Below the pieces are notes generated by a model, which saw nothing but the letters and a program-made list of their open reading frames with translations, was not told where the DNA came from and made no database searches. This document shows positions 897-6,677 of a stretch of DNA of 6,677 bases, piece by piece. The DNA comes from a plasmid: sequence record NZ_CP071298.1; one strand, 5' to 3'. Every line of letters begins with the position of its first letter. Position 1 is the first letter of the stretch. Position numbers and translations under genes: made by a program.

Positions 897-1014
897 GATG
901 CTTTTGACTTGTAAGAACAGGATTGAATGAAGCCATACTGTTCGCATATTTTTAGTGGATGAACAAACAAAATACGAGAGATTTTTTGTTCGTTTATCCA
1001 TGGTTTTAGAAAAA

Positions 1015-1055
1015 AGAGGGACGATTTCGGAAGAAGAAAATCGTCTCTTTTTTTC
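1015..1055 (+). terminator. Stem-loop agagggacgattt...aaatcgtctct followed by T7; terminator-like
   Basis: Stem of about 11 bp with a 2-nt bulge, a 10-nt loop, and a T-run at 1048-1055. Confidence 0.45.
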
Positions 1056-1088
1056 TTCTTTTTGTATGACAAAAAGAAAGATCTTTTG

Positions 1089-1112
1089 CCCATTTTATAA
1101 AAATAAAATGGG
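1089..1112. repeat. Hairpin cccatttta-taaaaa-taaaatggg
   Basis: 9-bp perfect stem. Confidence 0.4.
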
Positions 1113-1191
1113 TAGGTGGCGTTTGCGTAAAGCAAATCGACACAATCCAAAGGGAATAAAAGGGGAAAGTGAAACTTCCCCCTTTTCAAGC

Positions 1192-1233
1192 CACATTGTA
1201 ATACAAGAACGAAGTGCTTTGTATTACAATGTG
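1192..1233. repeat. Long inverted repeat cacattgtaatacaa-(12 nt)-ttgtattacaatgtg
   Basis: 15-bp perfect stem with a 12-nt loop (gaacgaagtgct), in a non-coding region. Confidence 0.6.
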
Positions 1234-1512
1234 ATAGCTTGCAGTATTTGTGGTATTATATTCTCTATTTTGTTAGGGGGATTGCAACCGCATAGGGCGC
1301 AATCCTTATTACAAAATCAATGACAAAGGGCGATTGAGGAATGAGCGCTGAGGCATTTTATTTTTAAAAAAAACTATTTATAAGTTCGAAATATGTATCA
1401 CAACTTTAATACGTGCTATCCAACTTTAAGAGAAGGACATTGATTCTTAGAACTATTCTCTTTTTGGTTATTGCTGAAAGCAATTTCTGATACCTATTTT
1501 TTGAGCAAATTA

Positions 1513-1550
1513 ACACCACTTTTTAGAGTGGTGTGTAAGTGCGCATTGTC
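1513..1550 (+). other. Candidate origin of transfer, MOBQ/RSF1010-like: inverted repeat acaccact-ttttag-agtggtgt immediately followed by GTAAGTGCGCATT
   Basis: The arrangement of an inverted repeat followed by a TAAGTGCGC core resembles the nick region of IncQ-type oriTs (TAAGTGCGCCCT). No relaxase gene is present in the window. Confidence 0.5.
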
Positions 1551-1736
1551 CTTATTTCATTCGGACTTCTGAATTTTAAAAATAAAGATTTTATTTCTTA
1601 ACTTCTCAATGCAGATATTAAATTATTTTATAAATTTGAGCGTACTTTTTGGAACTTCATTGTTTTTAAAAGCCTTTTGTATTTTAGATGGGCTTTTTGA
1701 CGCTTTACAGACCTTTTAAGGAGTTTTAAAACGAAT

Positions 1737-1815
1737 CAGGTAAACTTATTAGGGCTAACACTTAAAAGGGCTTAGAAAGCAAAATATGAGCTTTTAGAAT
1801 ATCTCTTACTTTTAT
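1737..1815 (+). repeat. Degenerate direct repeat copy 1 (caggtaaacttattagggct...gcttagaaagc...acttttatc)
   Basis: About 75% identical to 1936-2010. The shared blocks are caggtaa, gcttagaaagc and acttttat. Confidence 0.45.
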
Positions 1816-1935
1816 CTTTAAATAATCATTTTGCTATCCAGCGATAAAGATCAGCAAGTTCTATCAAAAGTTCTAATCGATTTTTTTATACCCTAGATAG
1901 CCATATAAGACTTTCTAGGGCATTTTAATTTATTT

Positions 1936-2010
1936 CAGGTAACTTAATTATGGGTATTGATAAAAAGTGCTTAGAAAGCGAATTAGGTCATTCTGTACTT
2001 TTATGGTTTT
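1936..2010 (+). repeat. Degenerate direct repeat copy 2
   Basis: Aligns with 1737-1815. The flanking motif cttttgac(n)ttaca also recurs, at 1694-1709 and 2014-2034. Confidence 0.45.
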
Positions 2011-2062
2011 AATCTTTTGACTTTTGCCTTACATTTTTAAAAAAATAAAAAAAGGCGAAGCC

Positions 2063-2089
2063 TTATATATATTTATCTTATATATTTTA
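2063..2089 (+). repeat. AT-rich tandem 12-13 bp repeats (ttatatatattta / tcttatatatttta) upstream of the iterons; origin AT-rich region
   Basis: Typical for the AT-rich half of iteron-type theta origins. A small hairpin aaggc-gaa-gcctt precedes it at 2052-2064. Confidence 0.4.
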
Positions 2090-2149
2090 ATCTTTTGTTC
2101 TTTTGCGTGCTAAAAAAATTAGTGTTTATAGGGTTTTACAGAATTTAAT

Positions 2150-2232
2150 GTGGGCAAAAAACTGTGTATACGTGGGCAAAAAACTGTGTATACGTGGGCA
2201 AAAAACTGTGTATACGTGGGCAAAAAACTGTA
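2150..2232 (+). repeat. Origin iterons: 22-bp direct repeat GTGGGCAAAAAACTGTGTATAC, three full copies plus one partial
   Basis: Perfect copies at 2150-2171, 2172-2193 and 2194-2215, and a 17-bp partial at 2216-2232. They lie directly upstream of the rep promoter, the classic arrangement of Rep_3 theta replicons of lactic acid bacteria. Confidence 0.88.
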
Positions 2233-2247
2233 CAAAGTCCACATATA

Positions 2248-2299
2248 TGTTATAATAAAAGCATAGAGAAAATTCAGCGCGAAATGACTTTCTCTATGC
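2248..2299 (+). promoter_or_regulatory. rep promoter (extended -10 TGtTATAAT at 2248-2256) with an 11-bp perfect inverted repeat operator gcatagagaaa...tttctctatgc (2261-2299)
   Basis: Extended -10 with a weak -35. The IR lies between the -10 and the RBS AAGGAG (2320-2325) and is a likely Rep autoregulation site. Confidence 0.55.
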
Positions 2300-2333
2300 C
2301 ACCTTAAAATCACTCACAAAGGAGTAACTTACT

Positions 2334-3494
2334 ATGCCTATTATACCAGAAAATCAAAACAAACAAAAGCAGGTGCTAACCTTGAATGACCTTGAAAAAC
2401 GCAAAGTAGTGGAGCATAACAGCCTCATTACCTCAATAGCCAAAATGGATAAAACGCCCTTGAAAATGTTTGAATTGGCGGTGTCTTGCATTGATACGGA
2501 AAAACAACTGGAAGATAATACGGTTTATCTTTCTAAAAGAGACCTTTTCGCTTTCTTTAAGGTGTCTGATAATGACAAACACAGTCGTTTTAAAGAAGCG
2601 GTTGAGAAAATGCAGAAACAAGCCTTTTTCAAAATCAAAGAAAAAAAAGATAAAGGTTTTGAGTTTGAAAATATTGTGCCGATTCCTTACGTCAAGTGGA
2701 CAGATTATAACGATGAAGTGTTAATCCGTTTCAGTCCTGAAATTATCCCCTACTTAGTCAATCTCAAAAAAAATTTCACGCAACATGCCTTATCTGACCT
2801 TGCTGAACTCAATAGCAAGTACAGTATTATCTTATATCGTTGGTTATCCATGAATTATAACCAATATGAGCATTACAGTTTCAAGGGCGGACGGAGAGAA
2901 GAACAAGTGGAAAGCTACCGCAATCCAACTATTTCTATAAAAGAGTTACGTACCATGACGGATACCGTAAAGTTATATAAAGAATTTAGAGATTTAGATA
3001 AAAGAGTTTTAAAAGAATCGTTGGAAGAAATCAACACTCACACCTCTTTTAACGTGTCTTATGACAAAGTGAAAAAAGGGCGAAGCATTGATTCTATTGT
3101 CTTTCACATCACGAAGAAACACCGAGCAGACGATAACAGCTACAAACTAGAGGACAAAACGTATCAAGAAGCGAAAGCCCAAAAAGAAGAATCTGAAAAG
3201 GACTTAGTCTTTAAAGCAATGGAAAGCAAATATACTAAATTGCTTATTGAAAATTTCCTTTTATCGCCCTATGAAATGACTGATACAGCACTTATGGCAG
3301 GTTTGCAAAAAAATGTTTATCCAAAGTATGACGAACTCAAAACATTACGAGGACTTGAGGGGGTCAAGAAGCACCTCTCATACGTTCGTGAGAAGCAAGA
3401 ACCTTATTCAAAAGGGAACATTGCAAAGTATCTTAAAAAGGCAATTGAACAGTACCTACCAACGGTTAAAAGGCAGGACATAGAAAATGAATGA
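2334..3494 (+). CDS. repB: Theta-type plasmid replication initiator, Rep_3 family (RepB-like), 386 aa
   Basis: RBS AAGGAG 8 nt upstream of the ATG. Sits immediately downstream of the iterons. Size and N-terminal winged-helix-like region are typical of iteron-binding Rep_3 initiators. The charged C-terminal half is typical too. Confidence 0.85.
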   Translation: MPIIPENQNKQKQVLTLNDLEKRKVVEHNSLITSIAKMDKTPLKMFELAVSCIDTEKQLEDNTVYLSKRDLFAFFKVSDNDKHSRFKEAVEKMQKQAFFKIKEKKDKGFEFENIVPIPYVKWTDYNDEVLIRFSPEIIPYLVNLKKNFTQHALSDLAELNSKYSIILYRWLSMNYNQYEHYSFKGGRREEQVESYRNPTISIKELRTMTDTVKLYKEFRDLDKRVLKESLEEINTHTSFNVSYDKVKKGRSIDSIVFHITKKHRADDNSYKLEDKTYQEAKAQKEESEKDLVFKAMESKYTKLLIENFLLSPYEMTDTALMAGLQKNVYPKYDELKTLRGLEGVKKHLSYVREKQEPYSKGNIAKYLKKAIEQYLPTVKRQDIENE

Positions 3495-4074
3495 AAACTA
3501 CAAAACCATAAAGGAACTTGCGGATGAGTTAGGTGTGAGTAAATCATATATTGATAAAATAATACGCATACTGAAATTGCATACTAAATTAGATAAAGTA
3601 GGTAATAAGTATGTGATTTCTAAAACACAAGAGAAGTCTATAAAAAATAGGCTTCTTTCGTCTGAATCAACAACTAAATCACACACTAAATCGACAACTA
3701 AAACGCATACTGAAGTTGATTTTGAAGTCGATTTTTTGAAAGAAGAAATCTTATATCTTAGAAAGAGTCACGATAAACAATTGACCAACAAAGATAAGCA
3801 GATAGAAACTTTAAGTAATCTTTTAGATCAACAACAACGACTAGCCTTACAAGATAAAAAGTTGTTAGAAGAATACAAAGCAGAAAATGACAGCTTAAAA
3901 GCTCTTAAAATGCCTACACAGGAAACAGAATTCAAACACTTAGACAATCAATATAAAGATGAAGTGAACGCTCTTAAAGAGAAGTTGGAAAATTTGCAGG
4001 AACAACTCAAAGTTCAAAAAAGGATAGAAGAACAAGAAAAACCAAGAAAGTGGTGGGGACTATGGCGAAAATAG
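3487..4074 (+). CDS. Replication-associated HTH/coiled-coil protein (OrfX-like), 195 aa
   Basis: Start overlaps the rep stop by 8 nt. The N-terminus TIKELADELGVSKSYIDKIIRIL is HTH-like. Residues from about 90 onward are heptad-rich coiled coil (LKEEILYLRKSHDKQL...LKEKLENLQEQLKVQKRIEEQ). This is the usual position of orfX in lactococcal-type theta replicons. Confidence 0.7.
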   Translation: MNENYKTIKELADELGVSKSYIDKIIRILKLHTKLDKVGNKYVISKTQEKSIKNRLLSSESTTKSHTKSTTKTHTEVDFEVDFLKEEILYLRKSHDKQLTNKDKQIETLSNLLDQQQRLALQDKKLLEEYKAENDSLKALKMPTQETEFKHLDNQYKDEVNALKEKLENLQEQLKVQKRIEEQEKPRKWWGLWRK

Positions 4075-5303
4075 ATGATTCAGTTAAAAAGAAAGTTCCT
4101 GAATTGCGATTTGCGGGGTTTGCTGACGATTGGGAAGAGCGTAATCTTGGTGAGTGGTCCGATGTTCGTGATGGAACACACGCTTCACCGAAGTATATTA
4201 AGCAAGGTCACCCAATGGTTACATCTAAAAATCTAACCGATTCTGGTTTAGACATGTCCGATGTTTCTTATTTAACTGATGAAGATTTTAATGAAATTAA
4301 CCAGCGATCAAAGGTTGATATCGGAGACATATTATTCGGAATGATTGGAACAATCGGAAAACCTGTAATCGTTGATAGAGATGACTTTGCAATCAAAAAT
4401 GTTGCATTGATTAAAGAGAAAACATCGCCAGAAATTATCAATACCTGGCTAATTCAATATTTAAAGTCGCCCTCATTTGAACGCTTTATCCAAAAGGAAA
4501 ATGCCGGTGGGACCCAAAAGTTTATTGCTTTGGGTTTGATTCGTGATATGAAGCTGATGACACCTAGTGTTCAGGAACAGGCCCGCATTGGTGAACTGTT
4601 AAATCATCTGGACAACCTTATCGTTGCTAACCAGCATAAGTTAGATTTATTGAAAGAGCAGAAAAAAGGATACTTACAAAAAATGTTCCCTAAAAATGGG
4701 GCTAAAGTTCCTGAATTGAGATTTGCGGGGTTTGCTGACGATTGGGAAGAGCGTAAGTTAGGTCAATATACTAAGTTAATTACTAAAGGAACGACGCCTA
4801 AGGATAAAACAGGTATTGGTGATGTTAATTTTGTTAAAGTTGAAAATATAACCAATGGTAAAATTTATCCTATTAATAAAATAAAACAAAATGAACATGA
4901 CAATTATTTAAAAAGATCTCGATTAGAAGAAAAAGATATTCTATTTTCAATAGCAGGTACATTAGGTAGAACAGCAATTGTAAATAAATCAATATTACCA
5001 GCTAATACTAATCAAGCTCTAGCGATAATAAGAGGGTATGATTTTGATACCAATTTTCTTATTACATCGTTATCTGGAAACGTCGTAAAGGAATATATTC
5101 GACGTAATCCAACAGTTGGTGCGCAACCTAATCTTTCTCTTGAACAAGTAGGTAATTTATTAGTTAATACACCAAATGCTGAAGAACAACAAAAAATCGG
5201 TTCATTCTTTAAACAATTAGATGACACTATCGCTCTTCATCAACGTAAGTTAGATTTATTGAAAGAACAGAAAAAAGGCTTTTTACAAAAGATATTTGTT
5301 TAG
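4062..5303 (+). CDS. hsdS: Type I restriction-modification specificity subunit HsdS (two target-recognition domains), orphan
   Basis: Conserved blocks are duplicated around two variable domains: KKVPELRFAGFADDWEER (twice) and HxxKLDLLKEQKKGxLQKxF (twice). This is the circularly symmetric HsdS architecture. ATG at 4062, or the alternative in-frame GTG at 4050, overlaps the end of orfX. No hsdM or hsdR is present in the window. Confidence 0.9.
   Translation: MAKIDDSVKKKVPELRFAGFADDWEERNLGEWSDVRDGTHASPKYIKQGHPMVTSKNLTDSGLDMSDVSYLTDEDFNEINQRSKVDIGDILFGMIGTIGKPVIVDRDDFAIKNVALIKEKTSPEIINTWLIQYLKSPSFERFIQKENAGGTQKFIALGLIRDMKLMTPSVQEQARIGELLNHLDNLIVANQHKLDLLKEQKKGYLQKMFPKNGAKVPELRFAGFADDWEERKLGQYTKLITKGTTPKDKTGIGDVNFVKVENITNGKIYPINKIKQNEHDNYLKRSRLEEKDILFSIAGTLGRTAIVNKSILPANTNQALAIIRGYDFDTNFLITSLSGNVVKEYIRRNPTVGAQPNLSLEQVGNLLVNTPNAEEQQKIGSFFKQLDDTIALHQRKLDLLKEQKKGFLQKIFV
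4092..4144 (+). repeat. hsdS intragenic direct repeat 1a (53 bp, N-terminal conserved region)
   Basis: aaagttcctgaattgcgatttgcggggtttgctgacgattgggaagagcgtaa is identical to 4704-4756 except for one base. Confidence 0.9.
4637..4670 (+). repeat. hsdS intragenic direct repeat 2a (34 bp, central conserved region)
   Basis: taagttagatttattgaaagagcagaaaaaagg matches 5246-5279 with one mismatch. Confidence 0.9.
4704..4756 (+). repeat. hsdS intragenic direct repeat 1b (central conserved region)
   Basis: Partner of 4092-4144, with 52 of 53 bases identical. Confidence 0.9.
5246..5279 (+). repeat. hsdS intragenic direct repeat 2b (C-terminal conserved region)
   Basis: Partner of 4637-4670. Confidence 0.9.
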
Positions 5304-5341
5304 GGTCTATAATTAGATAATAACCCCTAAGAAATTAAGCA

Positions 5342-5388
5342 AAAACAGCCCTTATACTTATAAGATATAATTATAGGGGCTGTTTTTT
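5342..5388 (+). terminator. Rho-independent terminator after hsdS (aaaacagcccttata...tataggggctgtttttt)
   Basis: Stem of about 15 bp with one mismatch, a 15-nt loop, and a T6 run. A/T runs on both sides make it potentially bidirectional. Confidence 0.7.
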
Positions 5389-5675: not shown

Positions 5676-5704
5676 ATTATAGCATAGGCTTTCTTCCTTG
5701 ATAA
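5676..5704 (-). promoter_or_regulatory. Minus-strand promoter (extended -10 TGcTATAAT at 5684..5676; -35-like TTATCA at 5704..5699, 17-bp spacer) driving the 42-aa ORF
   Basis: Read on the reverse complement: ttatcaaggaagaaagcctaTGcTATAAT. It sits 9 bp outside the Tn917-like terminal repeat. Confidence 0.4.
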
Positions 5705-5712
5705 CCTCTATA

Positions 5713-5785
5713 GGGGTCCCGAGCGCCTACGAGAAATTTGTATCGATAAGAAATAGATTTAAAAATTTCGCTGTTATTTTGTACA
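5713..5785 (+). repeat. Tn917/Tn3-family-like terminal inverted repeat (GGGGTCCCGAGCGCCTACGAGAAATTTGTATCGATAAG) plus adjacent sequence; direct-repeat partner of 499-569 (DR-B)
   Basis: Starts with GGGG at 5713 as Tn3-family IRs do. From memory the sequence matches the Tn917 left terminus. Near-identical in direct orientation to 499-569. Confidence 0.7.
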
Positions 5786-6038
5786 TTTAACTTGACGGTG
5801 ACATCTCTCTATTGTGAGTTATTAGTGGTACAGTTTTCAACCGTTTTAATTATAAAAAAGTGGTGCATTTTTAAATTGGCACAAACAGGTAACGGTTATT
5901 GCAGGTGTATTTCTTATCTATGGGTTTAACATGGATTTTATCATTAAAATCATGAGTATTGTCCGAGAGTGATTGGTCTTGCGTATGGTTAACCCTAAAG
6001 TTATGGAAATAAGACTTAGAAGCAAACTTAAGAGTGTG

Positions 6039-6071
6039 TTGATAGTGCATTATCTTAAAATTTTGTATAAT
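6039..6071 (+). promoter_or_regulatory. Probable erm(B) promoter (TTGATA ... TGTATAAT)
   Basis: TTGATA at 6039-6044 and TGTATAAT at 6064-6071, upstream of ermBL. Spacing between the hexamers is long at 21 bp, so the exact -35 is uncertain. Confidence 0.4.
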
Positions 6072-6128
6072 AGGAATTGAAGTTAAATTAGATGCTAAAA
6101 ATTTGTAATTAAGAAGGAGGGATTCGTC

Positions 6129-6212
6129 ATGTTGGTATTCCAAATGCGTAATGTAGATAAAACATCTACTGTTTTGAAACAGACTAAAAACAGTGATTAC
6201 GCAGATAAATAA
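6129..6212 (+). CDS. ermBL: erm(B) leader peptide (27 aa) MLVFQMRNVDKTSTVLKQTKNSDYADK
   Basis: Short ORF with a strong RBS AAGGAGGG at 6114-6121. The peptide sequence is the known ErmBL stalling/attenuation leader of erm(B). Confidence 0.88.
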   Translation: MLVFQMRNVDKTSTVLKQTKNSDYADK

Positions 6213-6336
6213 ATACGTTAGATTAATTCCTACCAGTGACTAATCTTATGACTTTTTAAACAGATAACTAAAATTACAAACAAATCGTTTAACTTCTGTA
6301 TTTATTTATAGATGTAATCACTTCAGGAGTGATTAA
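6190..6336 (+). promoter_or_regulatory. erm(B) translational attenuator (leader-ermB intergenic inverted repeats sequestering the ermB SD)
   Basis: GTGATTAC at 6194-6201 is complementary to GTAATCAC at 6313-6320. TAATCACT at 6314-6321 is complementary to AGTGATTA at 6326-6333, which flanks the ermB SD AGGAG (6325-6329). This is the classical alternative-pairing arrangement of erm attenuators. Confidence 0.6.
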
Positions 6337-6677
6337 ATGAACAAAAATATAAAATATTCTCAAAACTTTTTAACGAGTGAAAAAGTACTCAACCAAATAA
6401 TAAAACAATTGAATTTAAAAGAAACCGATACCGTTTACGAAATTGGAACAGGTAAAGGGCATTTAACGACGAAACTGGCTAAAATAAGTAAACAGGTAAC
6501 GTCTATTGAATTAGACAGTCATCTATTCAACTTATCGTCAGAAAAATTAAAACTGAATACTCGTGTCACTTTAATTCACCAAGATATTCTACAGTTTCAA
6601 TTCCCTAACAAACAGAGGTATAAAATTGTTGGGAATATTCCTTACCATTTAAGCACACAAATTATTAAAAAAGTGGT
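6337..6677 (+). CDS. ermB: 23S rRNA (adenine-N6)-dimethyltransferase Erm(B), 5' part (codons 1-113 plus 2 nt); continues at position 1 across the circular junction
   Basis: ATG at 6337 preceded by AGGAG at 6325-6329 with a 7-nt spacer. Translation [114 protein letters not shown] matches the Erm(B) N-terminus as I recall it. The frame runs off the window end and resumes in-frame at position 1 (gt+t = Val). Confidence 0.95.

Follow-up and report, generated by a model that had tools for sequence, protein, structure and literature searches.

A plasmid hsdS gene as a mosaic of two recognition modules joined inside repeated conserved segments

Introduction

The hsdS gene of a small Lactococcus plasmid raises a question of origin. 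Its two TRDs are unlike each other in composition, and the conserved segments beside them are repeated almost perfectly at the DNA level. How did two such modules come to lie in one gene, and why are the segments between them so alike? A preliminary description proposed that the TRDs have different evolutionary origins and were "joined or homogenised" through the repeats. The analysis covers the window, meaning the whole stretch of 6,677 nucleotides from sequence record NZ_CP071298.1.

The gene and its plasmid

On this theta replicon hsdS is the third gene in the order repB-orfX-hsdS. The features of the region are the following.

2150-2231: iterons, 5' of repB
2248-2334, minus strand: ctRNA_pND324
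2334..3494, plus strand: repB, theta-replicon initiator (Pfam Rep3_N, Rep3_C, L_lactis_RepB_C)
3487..4074, plus strand: orfX, replication-associated HTH protein (ORF list, Pfam; PMC3138775)
4062..5303, plus strand: hsdS, type I R-M specificity subunit, 413 aa from the ATG at 4062, intact, with two TRDs (ORF list)
5341..5387, plus strand: hairpin followed by a U-run, 3' of hsdS (inverted repeat, RNA folding)

The 5' end of hsdS overlaps the 3' end of orfX by 13 nt, and an in-frame GTG lies at 4050, 5' of the ATG. The product matches Pfam PF01420 Methylase_S in two stretches (E=3.4e-31) and is 100% identical to a database protein (P0001), annotated as the restriction endonuclease subunit S of a 6677-bp plasmid of Lactococcus sp. 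LG1267. The family-specific HsdS motifs LRFxGFxDxWE and KLDLLKEQKKG are each present in two copies in the family order, a layout shared by 96 of 120 homologues. It is an intact orphan hsdS of the pAH82-type family of type I systems on lactococcal plasmids. Its layout is x-TRD1-y-x-TRD2-y, where x and y denote the repeated conserved segments.

Neither hsdM nor hsdR was found on the window, on pLG1267-optrA or on the LG1267 plasmid 'unnamed1', and the latter two plasmids have no hsdS. The other LG1267 replicons covered have the accessions CP071296 and CP071297. Across the family a pAH82-type hsdM stands directly upstream of hsdS in 52 of the 80 genome loci kept from a genome-contig scan, a set without any L. 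garvieae-group representative. Judging by the family, HsdS would join two HsdM and HsdR supplied in trans, and its two TRDs would set a bipartite target. The system on pLG42, a plasmid of L. garvieae, is identical to the one on pAH82 (PMC4420470).

The plasmid also carries erm(B), and its host is a human faecal strain of the L. garvieae group. A cloning-vector origin was considered for the combination of erm(B) with a lactococcal replicon and was rejected, since the sequence belongs to a natural plasmid of strain LG1267.

The hairpin downstream of hsdS folds at -23.9 kcal/mol (z=-5.45), and none of 200 shuffles was equally stable. It is a probable intrinsic terminator of the repB-orfX-hsdS unit. 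A simple consensus terminator scan missed it, the inner loop being larger than the scan allows.

The repeated conserved segments

Two pairs of direct repeats, all on the plus strand, frame the TRDs.

4092..4144: x, N-terminal copy (KVPELRFAGFADDWEERN), of the "central" sequence type
4704..4756: x, central copy (KVPELRFAGFADDWEERK), with a private synonymous A at 4719
4637..4669: y, central copy (KLDLLKEQKKG), 33 nt, one mismatch to 5246-5278
5246..5278: y, C-terminal copy, paired with 4637..4669

As the preliminary description had stated, the x copies differ at only one of 53 nt (C at 4107, A at 4719). The perfect blocks on either side of it are 15 and 37 nt long. Its second repeat, given as 34 bp with one mismatch, is real and has the stated number of mismatches, but it is 33 nt long, as position 5279 is itself mismatched. 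The mismatch in y falls at 4658, leaving perfect blocks of 21 and 11 nt, and y is nested in a longer repeat of 101 nt at 73% identity (4587-4687 and 5196-5296). Measured from start to start, the x copies are 612 nt apart and the y copies 609 nt, and each spacing keeps the reading frame. Shuffling the gene 30 times gave longest direct repeats (up to one mismatch allowed) of 13 nt on average and 16 nt at most, against the 53 nt observed.

One explanation for the repeats is selection on the protein. According to this model, x and y are structural conserved regions of every HsdS, kept alike by protein selection with no recent recombination, and the GC contrast between the TRDs follows from their amino-acid content. 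Such segments are indeed present in all HsdS of the family, and the repeats encode the parts of the protein that contact HsdM and form the coiled coil (PMC3874165). A simulation of the codons argues against it. When the same 17 amino acids of x were encoded twice, each codon being drawn independently according to the usage of the plasmid itself, the expected number of matching nucleotides was 41.2 +/- 2.2, against the 50 of 51 observed, a value reached in 0 of 20,000 trials. For y the excess is smaller (33 of 36 matches against 27.1 +/- 2.1 expected, p=0.004).

The relatives speak against protein selection as well. In typical relatives the N-terminal and central copies of x share only about 80% DNA identity, and their proteins differ too. 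At the level of loci, the two copies are the same in 3 of 39 genes. The near-perfect 53-nt repeat is atypical of the family, and long-term homogenisation is not its main cause.

The N-terminal copy is itself of the central type. The central copies of pAH82, pIBB417_4 and pPUL105_3 match it at 100% identity, and the core LRFAGFADDWE is found centrally in 83 of 95 relatives and N-terminally in five of the 95.

Composition of the TRDs

The two TRDs, both on the plus strand, have the following extents.

4145..4630: TRD1, position 1, 38.5% GC; GC at third codon positions (GC3) 0.34, or 0.322 for the motif-bounded core
4757..5230: TRD2, position 2, 28.9% GC; GC3 0.106; pAH82 TRD2 type

The difference in GC between 4145-4630 and 4760-5230 is significant (Fisher p=0.002), and it is sharper at third codon positions, where 55 of 161 in TRD1 (34%) and 17 of 156 in TRD2 (11%) are G or C (Fisher p=9e-7). 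This placement of the contrast is a further point against an amino-acid explanation. In windows of 150 nt, TRD1 ranges from 33 to 45% GC and TRD2 from 21 to 35%. The marked difference noticed earlier thus stands and composition is not uniform, but the 42-48% once given for TRD1 describes the upper end of these windows, not the average.

For reference, 78 TRDs from 39 hsdS genes of the same layout have a GC3 of 0.226 +/- 0.064 (range 0.106-0.393). TRD2 is the minimum of this set and TRD1 lies at about the 94th percentile. The gap of 0.216 within the gene is the largest in the 39 genes, equalled only by a circularly permuted relative (L005). Compared with repB, the GC3 of TRD2 is deviant (p=4e-11) and that of TRD1 is not (p=0.38). 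TRD2 is a compositional outlier against the plasmid backbone.

Relatives of the two modules

Different origins for the TRDs are most directly seen by searching for the relatives of each separately. For TRD1, the close matches are a plasmid gene of L. garvieae FDAARGOS_893, at 99.6-99.7%, and a sister plasmid (L006); everything else in PLSDB is at 77% or below. For TRD2, the closest DNA is that of Leuconostoc citreum pPUL105_3 (98%), followed by pAH82 and pIBB417_4 (about 96-97%), all in position 2. The different closest relatives, together with the uneven composition, bear out the proposal of two origins. They also count against protein selection, since each half has a relative at 98-100% identity and these relatives are different genes. 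Taken with the codon simulation, this makes protein selection a very unlikely explanation of the repeats.

The match to the FDAARGOS_893 plasmid (L001) does more than identify a relative. It extends beyond the TRD to a larger module.

4091..4687, plus strand: TRD1 module, consisting of x, TRD1 and the first half of the central conserved region, 38.5% GC

Over 596 nt, 4092-4687 of the window is 99.66% identical to 2948-3543 of L001, which lies inside a CDS at 2381-3550. The matching DNA is a position-2 module there, in the C-terminal half of the CDS. The same stretch matches position-2 modules of two further relatives at 98.2% (L005) and 98.8% (L007). Among relatives, the TRD1 type (at least 95% amino-acid identity) stands in the N position in five cases and in the C position in 23. 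The residue after WEER, which is N and not K, goes with the TRD1 type in position-2 alleles.

The most likely reading of the 53-nt x repeat is that it marks a position-2 module which was moved, central-type x included, into position 1. Such a move would account for why the two copies of x are nearly identical here and only about 80% identical in typical relatives.

Junctions

Evidence for a transplanted module can be sought at its edges. Aligned in the position-2 register with L001, the window has no mismatch from 4091 to 4635, and the rest as far as 4687 shows two differences, at 4636 and 4670. The N-terminal register gives identity over 4059-4099 and diverges from 4100 onward, and in the C-terminal register divergence begins at 4688. 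The left junction therefore lies at about 4091-4099, within x, and the right junction within about 4636-4687, in the extended y, which includes KLDLLKEQKKGYLQKMF at about 4677-4687. The exchange junctions of hsdS fall inside the flanking repeats and conserved regions.

An alternative is intragenic gene conversion, in which the gene's own central x overwrote the N-terminal x and no TRD ever changed position. Homogenisation had been suggested in the preliminary description, and bases 4100 and 4114 differ from those of the sister plasmid in the direction expected of a short patch converted to the central type. However, the position-2 identity to L001 is continuous over 4091-4687, taking in x, the entire TRD and y, and it crosses the boundary of x and TRD without interruption. 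The N after WEER, which accompanies this TRD in position-2 alleles, also argues against a patch limited to x. Nor is the gene's own central copy the exact donor, since its A at 4719 corresponds to a C in the N-terminal copy. We regard conversion as unlikely, though less so than protein selection.

The gene is thus confirmed as a real mosaic of two recognition modules of different origin, joined inside repeated conserved segments. It was very probably assembled by at least two homologous exchanges with junctions in x and y. In the earlier phrase "joined or homogenised", the joining stands and homogenisation as the main cause does not.

A proposed history

Comparison with relatives shows a module of central-type x, TRD and y in position 2 of L. 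garvieae/L. petauri plasmid hsdS genes. This module was very probably placed into position 1 of a repB-orfX-hsdS plasmid. The left crossover would have occurred in the short stretch common to the N-terminal and central x copies (about 4091-4099), and the right one in y, within KLDLLKEQKKGYLQKMF. Such a step would correspond to what Furuta et al. 2011 call domain movement (DoMo). Position 2 holds, as comparison again shows, a widely circulating and very AT-rich TRD of the pAH82 TRD2 type.

The sister plasmid (L006, GCA_041907945.1) helps to place these steps. It shares the backbone over 976-3546 at 98.7% and has the same TRD1 in position 1, with another TRD2. The window, L006 and L001 are identical over 4115-4635, and the window and L006 diverge from 4760. 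What separates L006 from the plasmid studied here is therefore an ordinary exchange at the same position, made through the conserved regions in the centre and at the C terminus.

The events may also have come in another number or order. The move from position 2 to position 1 may predate the split from L006 or may have been independent, because L006 has N-type bases at 4100 and 4114, where the window is of the central type. We infer the direction of movement only from the "flavour" of the conserved regions and the 23:5 count of positions. Exchange between plasmids is at least as likely as movement within a single locus, since the alleles compared are on different plasmids in different hosts. 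The mosaic origin itself is read from sequences, and the recombination is a reconstruction.

The donor of TRD2 lies outside current sampling. In the central conserved region (4636-4759), bases 4636, 4670, 4700, 4703 and 4719 are matched by no compared relative, and a search of PLSDB for a donor of this region with TRD2 gave a best match of 96.5%. On both counts the actual donor is unsampled.

The repeats would still be substrates for exchange with other hsdS alleles. An in-frame deletion of 612 or 609 nt would leave a single-TRD subunit of 209 or 210 aa, and these predicted products retain one x, one TRD and one y.

Mobility across the family

A circular permutation of the gene is found in Leuconostoc mesenteroides. 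Its protein (P0002) has both TRDs at 99% amino-acid identity in reverse order. At the DNA level the identities are 98.2% and 95.8%, and it is the closest relative of neither TRD. The TRD2 type likewise takes both places among relatives, with 33 cases in the N position and 50 in the C position. The family also includes three-TRD alleles, such as unequal exchange would be expected to produce. The particular TRD combination of the window is a singleton in the protein database.

These observations point to a pool of hsdS genes on plasmids of lactic acid bacteria in which TRDs are cassettes that work in either position, with routine moves between positions 1 and 2 across plasmids and genera giving rise to permuted pairs and three-TRD alleles. 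We consider this general model slightly better than an even bet. The direction of each move would be readable from sequence, given that in this family the conserved segments at the N terminus and in the centre are normally unlike.

Frequent reassortment might also come about through programmed, site-specific shuffling for phase variation, like that at the ivr/tvr loci of pneumococci or in Mycoplasma pulmonis. TRD reassortment is very frequent in the family, and some related plasmids carry genes for site-specific integrases or recombinases. This plasmid, by contrast, has one hsdS, without a second or partial copy and without a recombinase ORF. Its repeats are direct, and the inverted repeats within hsdS are weak (14-25 nt, 80-86%). 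Nor do the other LG1267 plasmids, pLG1267-optrA and 'unnamed1', contain an hsdS. An inverton or other phase-variable reading was accordingly rejected, and programmed shuffling is the least probable of the explanations considered, with very little chance of being correct.

Relation to known systems

Plasmid hsdS domain shuffling in Lactococcus lactis was reportedly described by O'Sullivan et al. 2000, Schouler et al. 1998 and Seegers et al. 2000. According to several papers, recombination in the conserved regions of lactococcal plasmid hsdS genes leads to new specificities, as the preliminary description held, and hsdS genes of half the usual size occur and can be active (PMC3077401 citing O'Sullivan 2000; PMC6098607; PMC3138775; PMC12418389). 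Orphan or truncated S subunits have lactococcal precedent in the last three of these (PMC6098607, PMC3138775, PMC12418389).

The orphan hsdS genes of L. lactis theta plasmids (pAH33/pAH82, pIL2614/pIL7/pIL103, pCIS3 and the pLd plasmids) resemble the present one in the order repB-orfX-hsdS, in the same conserved regions with two variable TRDs, and in the lack of plasmid hsdM and hsdR. The TRD2 of pAH82 has 96-97% DNA identity to TRD2 here, and alleles with one TRD in common and the other differing are known from L. lactis plasmids (PMC6098607; PMC3138775; PMC12418389). Those reports, however, concern reassortment in the same position only, whereas here one module changed position; in the searchable literature on plasmids of lactococci and other lactic acid bacteria, no description of position-changing moves was found, only same-position shuffling. 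The setting differs too, being a human faecal L. garvieae-group strain and a plasmid with erm(B).

Precedent for a change of position comes from DoMo, described for specificity genes of types I and IIG in Helicobacter pylori, Streptococcus pyogenes and Mycoplasma agalactiae, a model that also admits movement between loci (Furuta et al. 2011, PMC3077401). Common to both are the x-(TRD1)-y-x-(TRD2)-y layout with repeats of 20-55 nt, one TRD sequence in position 1 of one allele and position 2 of another (here the window and L001), the proposed double crossover, in which right x recombines with left x and right y with left y, and one-TRD and three-TRD alleles within the same family. The present alleles differ in that they do not share one chromosomal locus but are carried on different mobile plasmids, whose host genera include Lactococcus, Leuconostoc and Enterococcus. 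Moreover, the N-terminal and central x are normally distinguishable here and serve as a marker of direction, which the repeats of H. pylori do not provide.

Engineered circular permutations and half-subunits of HsdS reportedly include EcoAI (Janscak & Bickle 1998) and truncations of EcoDXXI/EcoR124I. HsdS is pseudo-symmetric, and permuted or single-TRD forms can be active (PMC3874165; PMC12418389), truncated S.Lcr subunits being one case (PMC12418389). The window protein and P0002 form a natural permuted pair, although here the permutation concerns the order of TRDs between alleles and not a moved terminus in one protein.

Significance

The gene is a new allele, and its mosaicism is the normal, already described mode of evolution of this gene family. 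Mosaic hsdS genes, exchange through the conserved repeats, half-subunits and domain movement were all known already, and the understanding of type I systems is unchanged. What the locus adds is a 6.7-kb erm(B) mini-replicon that also carries a predicted, probably functional restriction-specificity cassette. Its modules circulate among lactic acid bacteria from dairy, plant-fermentation and animal sources, which is modest evidence for connected gene pools.

With many near-identical TRDs in both positions, permuted pairs and three-TRD alleles, the family would be a convenient natural set for relating TRDs to half-sites and for counting recombination events. If TRDs do act as cassettes, the window gene and P0002 would provide a natural test of how TRD order affects target or activity.

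The plasmid and its host

The window is a complete circular plasmid of 6677 bp opened within erm(B); joining its ends restores a single erm(B) gene together with its leader. Apart from erm(B), the plasmid is a classic lactococcal theta replicon. Its features are as follows.

Features of the plasmid
6337-6677 and 1-397: erm(B) coding sequence
about 5692-6677 and 1-833: erm(B) cassette, about 1.8 kb
2150-2231: iterons, 22 nt, 3.7 copies, 100% matches
2248-2334, minus strand: antisense ctRNA_pND324 (86 bits), abutting the start of repB
2334-3494: repB
3487-4074: orfX
4062-5303: hsdS
5341-5387: stable hairpin with a U-run

The erm(B) cassette, including the leader, is 99-100% identical to erm(B) of enterococcal and staphylococcal plasmids. 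It is flanked by the terminator region of hsdS on one side and by the repB upstream region on the other, and no IS or transposase ORF adjoins it in the window. A stretch of some 1.2 kb ahead of the origin (834-2060) is about 90% conserved in many lactococcal plasmids; its sole long ORF encodes 122 aa (955-1323), and in relatives a small ORF of this region is annotated "cytochrome B".

HsdS matches, at 100% identity, a protein from a 6677-bp contig that is annotated as a plasmid of Lactococcus sp. LG1267. This is an L. garvieae-group isolate from human faeces in Hangzhou that also carries pLG1267-optrA.

Conserved repeats and composition of hsdS

The gene has the layout x-TRD1-y-x-TRD2-y, where x and y are conserved repeats and the TRDs are target recognition domains. 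The two copies of x (4092-4144 and 4704-4756) are 53 nt long with one mismatch, as a preliminary description of this DNA had found. The copies of y (4637-4669 and 5246-5278) also differ at one position; this repeat had been put at 34 bp and is 33 nt long. Shuffled versions of hsdS contain repeats of at most 16 nt, compared with 53 nt in the real gene. The DNA of the two x copies is more alike than identical protein sequence demands: 50 of 51 nt match, against an expected 41.2 +/- 2.2 for the same protein with independent codon choice, and none of 20,000 trials reached 50.

The TRDs differ in composition, TRD1 being more GC-rich than TRD2 on proper calculation (38.5% vs 28.9% GC; GC3 34% vs 11%, Fisher p=9e-7). 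The earlier estimate of 42-48% for TRD1 describes the upper end of local windows rather than the mean. Compared with the plasmid's own repB, the outlier is TRD2. Among 78 TRDs from 39 hsdS genes of the same layout, TRD2 ranks lowest and TRD1 near the top, and the gap within the window's gene is the largest of the 39.

Evidence for a change of position

Following a suggestion in the preliminary description, each TRD was searched separately in PLSDB. TRD1 is 99.6% identical to NZ_CP065690, a plasmid of L. garvieae FDAARGOS_893, with all other matches at or below 77%. TRD2 is closest to Leuconostoc citreum pPUL105_3 (98%), followed by pAH82, pIBB417_4 and others (about 96-97%). These different closest relatives agree with the proposal that the TRDs have different origins.

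Window 4092-4687, which runs from the N-terminal x across TRD1 and halfway into the central conserved region, is 99.66% identical to 2948-3543 of the L. garvieae gene (CDS 2381-3550). There, the match corresponds to the central x, TRD2 and the C-terminal conserved region. Because the alignment is to the second half of the L. garvieae hsdS, the same module occupies position 2 in that gene and position 1 here.

The junctions can be located by mapping mismatches in three registers. In the position-2 register there are none from 4091 to 4635, and up to 4687 just 4636 and 4670 differ. In the N-terminal register of relatives, the sequence is identical over 4059-4099 and divergent from 4100; in the C-terminal register, divergence appears at 4688. 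Both junctions therefore fall inside conserved segments, as expected if the TRDs were joined through the conserved repeats. The proposed first step is that a position-2 module (x, TRD1, y) would have been transferred to position 1 via these segments.

N-terminal and central x are normally distinguishable in this family. The central core reads LRFAGFADDWE in 83 of 95 relatives. At the N-terminus most have LRF[K/P/E]GFTD[D/E]WE, and only 5 of 95 have LRFAGFADDWE. Counted by locus, the N-terminal and central cores agree in 3 of 39 genes, and in the FDAARGOS_893 plasmid and pIBB417_4 the two x copies are about 80% identical in DNA. The window's N-terminal x is 100% identical to the central x of pAH82, pIBB417_4 and pPUL105_3, and is followed by Asn, the residue that accompanies the TRD1 type in position-2 alleles.

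The preliminary description had suggested that the TRDs were "joined or homogenised" through the repeats. Joining is supported, as is its interpretation overall. Slow homogenisation fits less well, since the N-terminal x matches central copies and is followed by the accompanying Asn. Going beyond that description, TRD1 is best read as derived from position 2, and the 53-nt repeat as the scar of its relocation to position 1.

History of the allele

A sister plasmid (GCA_041907945.1), whose backbone is 98.7% identical over window 976-3546, already has the TRD1 type in position 1. It, the window and the FDAARGOS_893 plasmid are identical across 4115-4635, and the sister departs from the window at 4760, leading into a different TRD2. 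From these three sequences, a minimum of two exchanges follows: TRD1 changed its position in one, and TRD2 was swapped within its own position in the other. The latter would be what separates the window from its sister. At 4100 and 4114 the sister has N-type bases and the window central-type bases. The difference may have arisen through independent events that crossed over at different points, or the window may have undergone one more short patch of conversion.

The central conserved region (4636-4759) contains five bases without a match in any compared relative, and its best PLSDB match is 96.5%. The TRD2 donor allele thus appears to be absent from the sampled sequences.

Mobility of TRDs in the family

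TRD positions were counted in the 120 best homologues, with a TRD type defined by at least 95% aa identity. For the TRD1 type there are 5 occurrences in the N position against 23 in the C position; for TRD2 the counts are 33 and 50.

An example of a reversed order is the homologue P0002 from Leuconostoc mesenteroides, whose position 1 holds TRD2 and whose position 2 holds TRD1, each at 99% aa identity (DNA identity 95.8% and 98.2%, respectively). Judged by its sequence, it is a natural circular permutation of the window's HsdS. Another homologue, P0003 (L007 1961-3214), has TRD1-lineage domains at both positions (85% and 100% aa), a pair for which a near-palindromic target is predicted. In the L. 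garvieae LG728 plasmid (hsdS 4119-5387), the N-terminal x is likewise central-type.

Four homologues of 588-616 aa (P0022, P0023, P0025 and P0045) contain three x motifs and represent three-TRD alleles. P0023 and P0045 have three y motifs and P0022 two; P0025 carries a TRD2-like domain twice, as its second and third TRDs. Half-size hsdS genes have been reported from L. lactis plasmids (PMC6098607, PMC3138775), in line with the earlier suggestion that intragenic deletion could yield a half-HsdS, and truncated single-TRD subunits have been shown to be active (PMC12418389). Active recombination at x and y would be expected to generate all these forms. For the window's gene, x-by-x or y-by-y exchange is predicted to leave the reading frame intact and to shorten the protein to 209 or 210 aa, with a single copy each of x, TRD and y.

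Full-length lactococcal-type HsdS also occurs on small contigs of other assemblies, which look like contamination by lactic-acid-bacterial plasmid DNA.

Assemblies with lactococcal-type HsdS
Actinomycete "NPDC" assemblies (Streptomyces, Nonomuraea, Actinoplanes, Amycolatopsis, Dactylosporangium): L026-L033, L080, L091
Proteus sp. FME41 contigs: L030, L068 (HsdM of L068 98.7% identical to that of pAH82)

Relation to known systems

It is established that hsdS genes on lactococcal plasmids can be mosaic and gain new specificities when they recombine in their conserved regions (O'Sullivan 2000 and Schouler 1998, as cited in PMC3077401, PMC6098607 and PMC12418389), as the preliminary description had held. 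The window's hsdS is a new allele of this well-known kind of gene. In domain movement (DoMo; Furuta et al. 2011), described in H. pylori, S. pyogenes and M. agalactiae, exchange at x/y repeats carries a TRD from one of the two positions to the other (PMC3077401). The window's gene shows the defining features of DoMo apart from movement provably within one locus: the alleles compared are on different plasmids, and exchange between plasmids is at least as likely.

No description of position changes or natural permuted pairs in hsdS of lactococcal or other LAB plasmids was found in the searchable literature; key subscription papers lie outside that search, so novelty is unproven. On its own the allele is of modest interest; it gains somewhat as a starting point for surveying TRD position changes across the family.

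Partners and expression

In type I systems, HsdS attaches two HsdM subunits via its conserved regions; each TRD recognises half of a bipartite target, and HsdR joins for restriction (PMC3874165, PMC12418389). The window plasmid has no hsdM or hsdR. Neither these genes nor hsdS gave a tblastn match on two co-resident LG1267 plasmids, pLG1267-optrA (71.9 kb) and unnamed1 (10.1 kb), which carry optrA, erm(A), tet(S), tet(L) and several IS6 elements. A partner would therefore need to be chromosomal or on an unsampled replicon. Elsewhere in the family, hsdM lies immediately upstream of hsdS at 52 of 80 genome loci, and several of the linked HsdM proteins share about 98% identity with that of pAH82. 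The L. garvieae plasmid pLG42 has a restriction system identical to that of pAH82 (PMC4420470).

Expression of hsdS is probably coupled to repB-orfX, given that stop and start codons overlap, that no strong internal promoter was matched and that a probable terminator follows hsdS. The middle of orfX (3547-3823) does not align to the sister plasmid, though both flanks are 97-99% identical, and 12-nt tandem repeats occur at 3665-3702 and 3711-3735; orfX thus also appears to be mosaic or repeat-variable.
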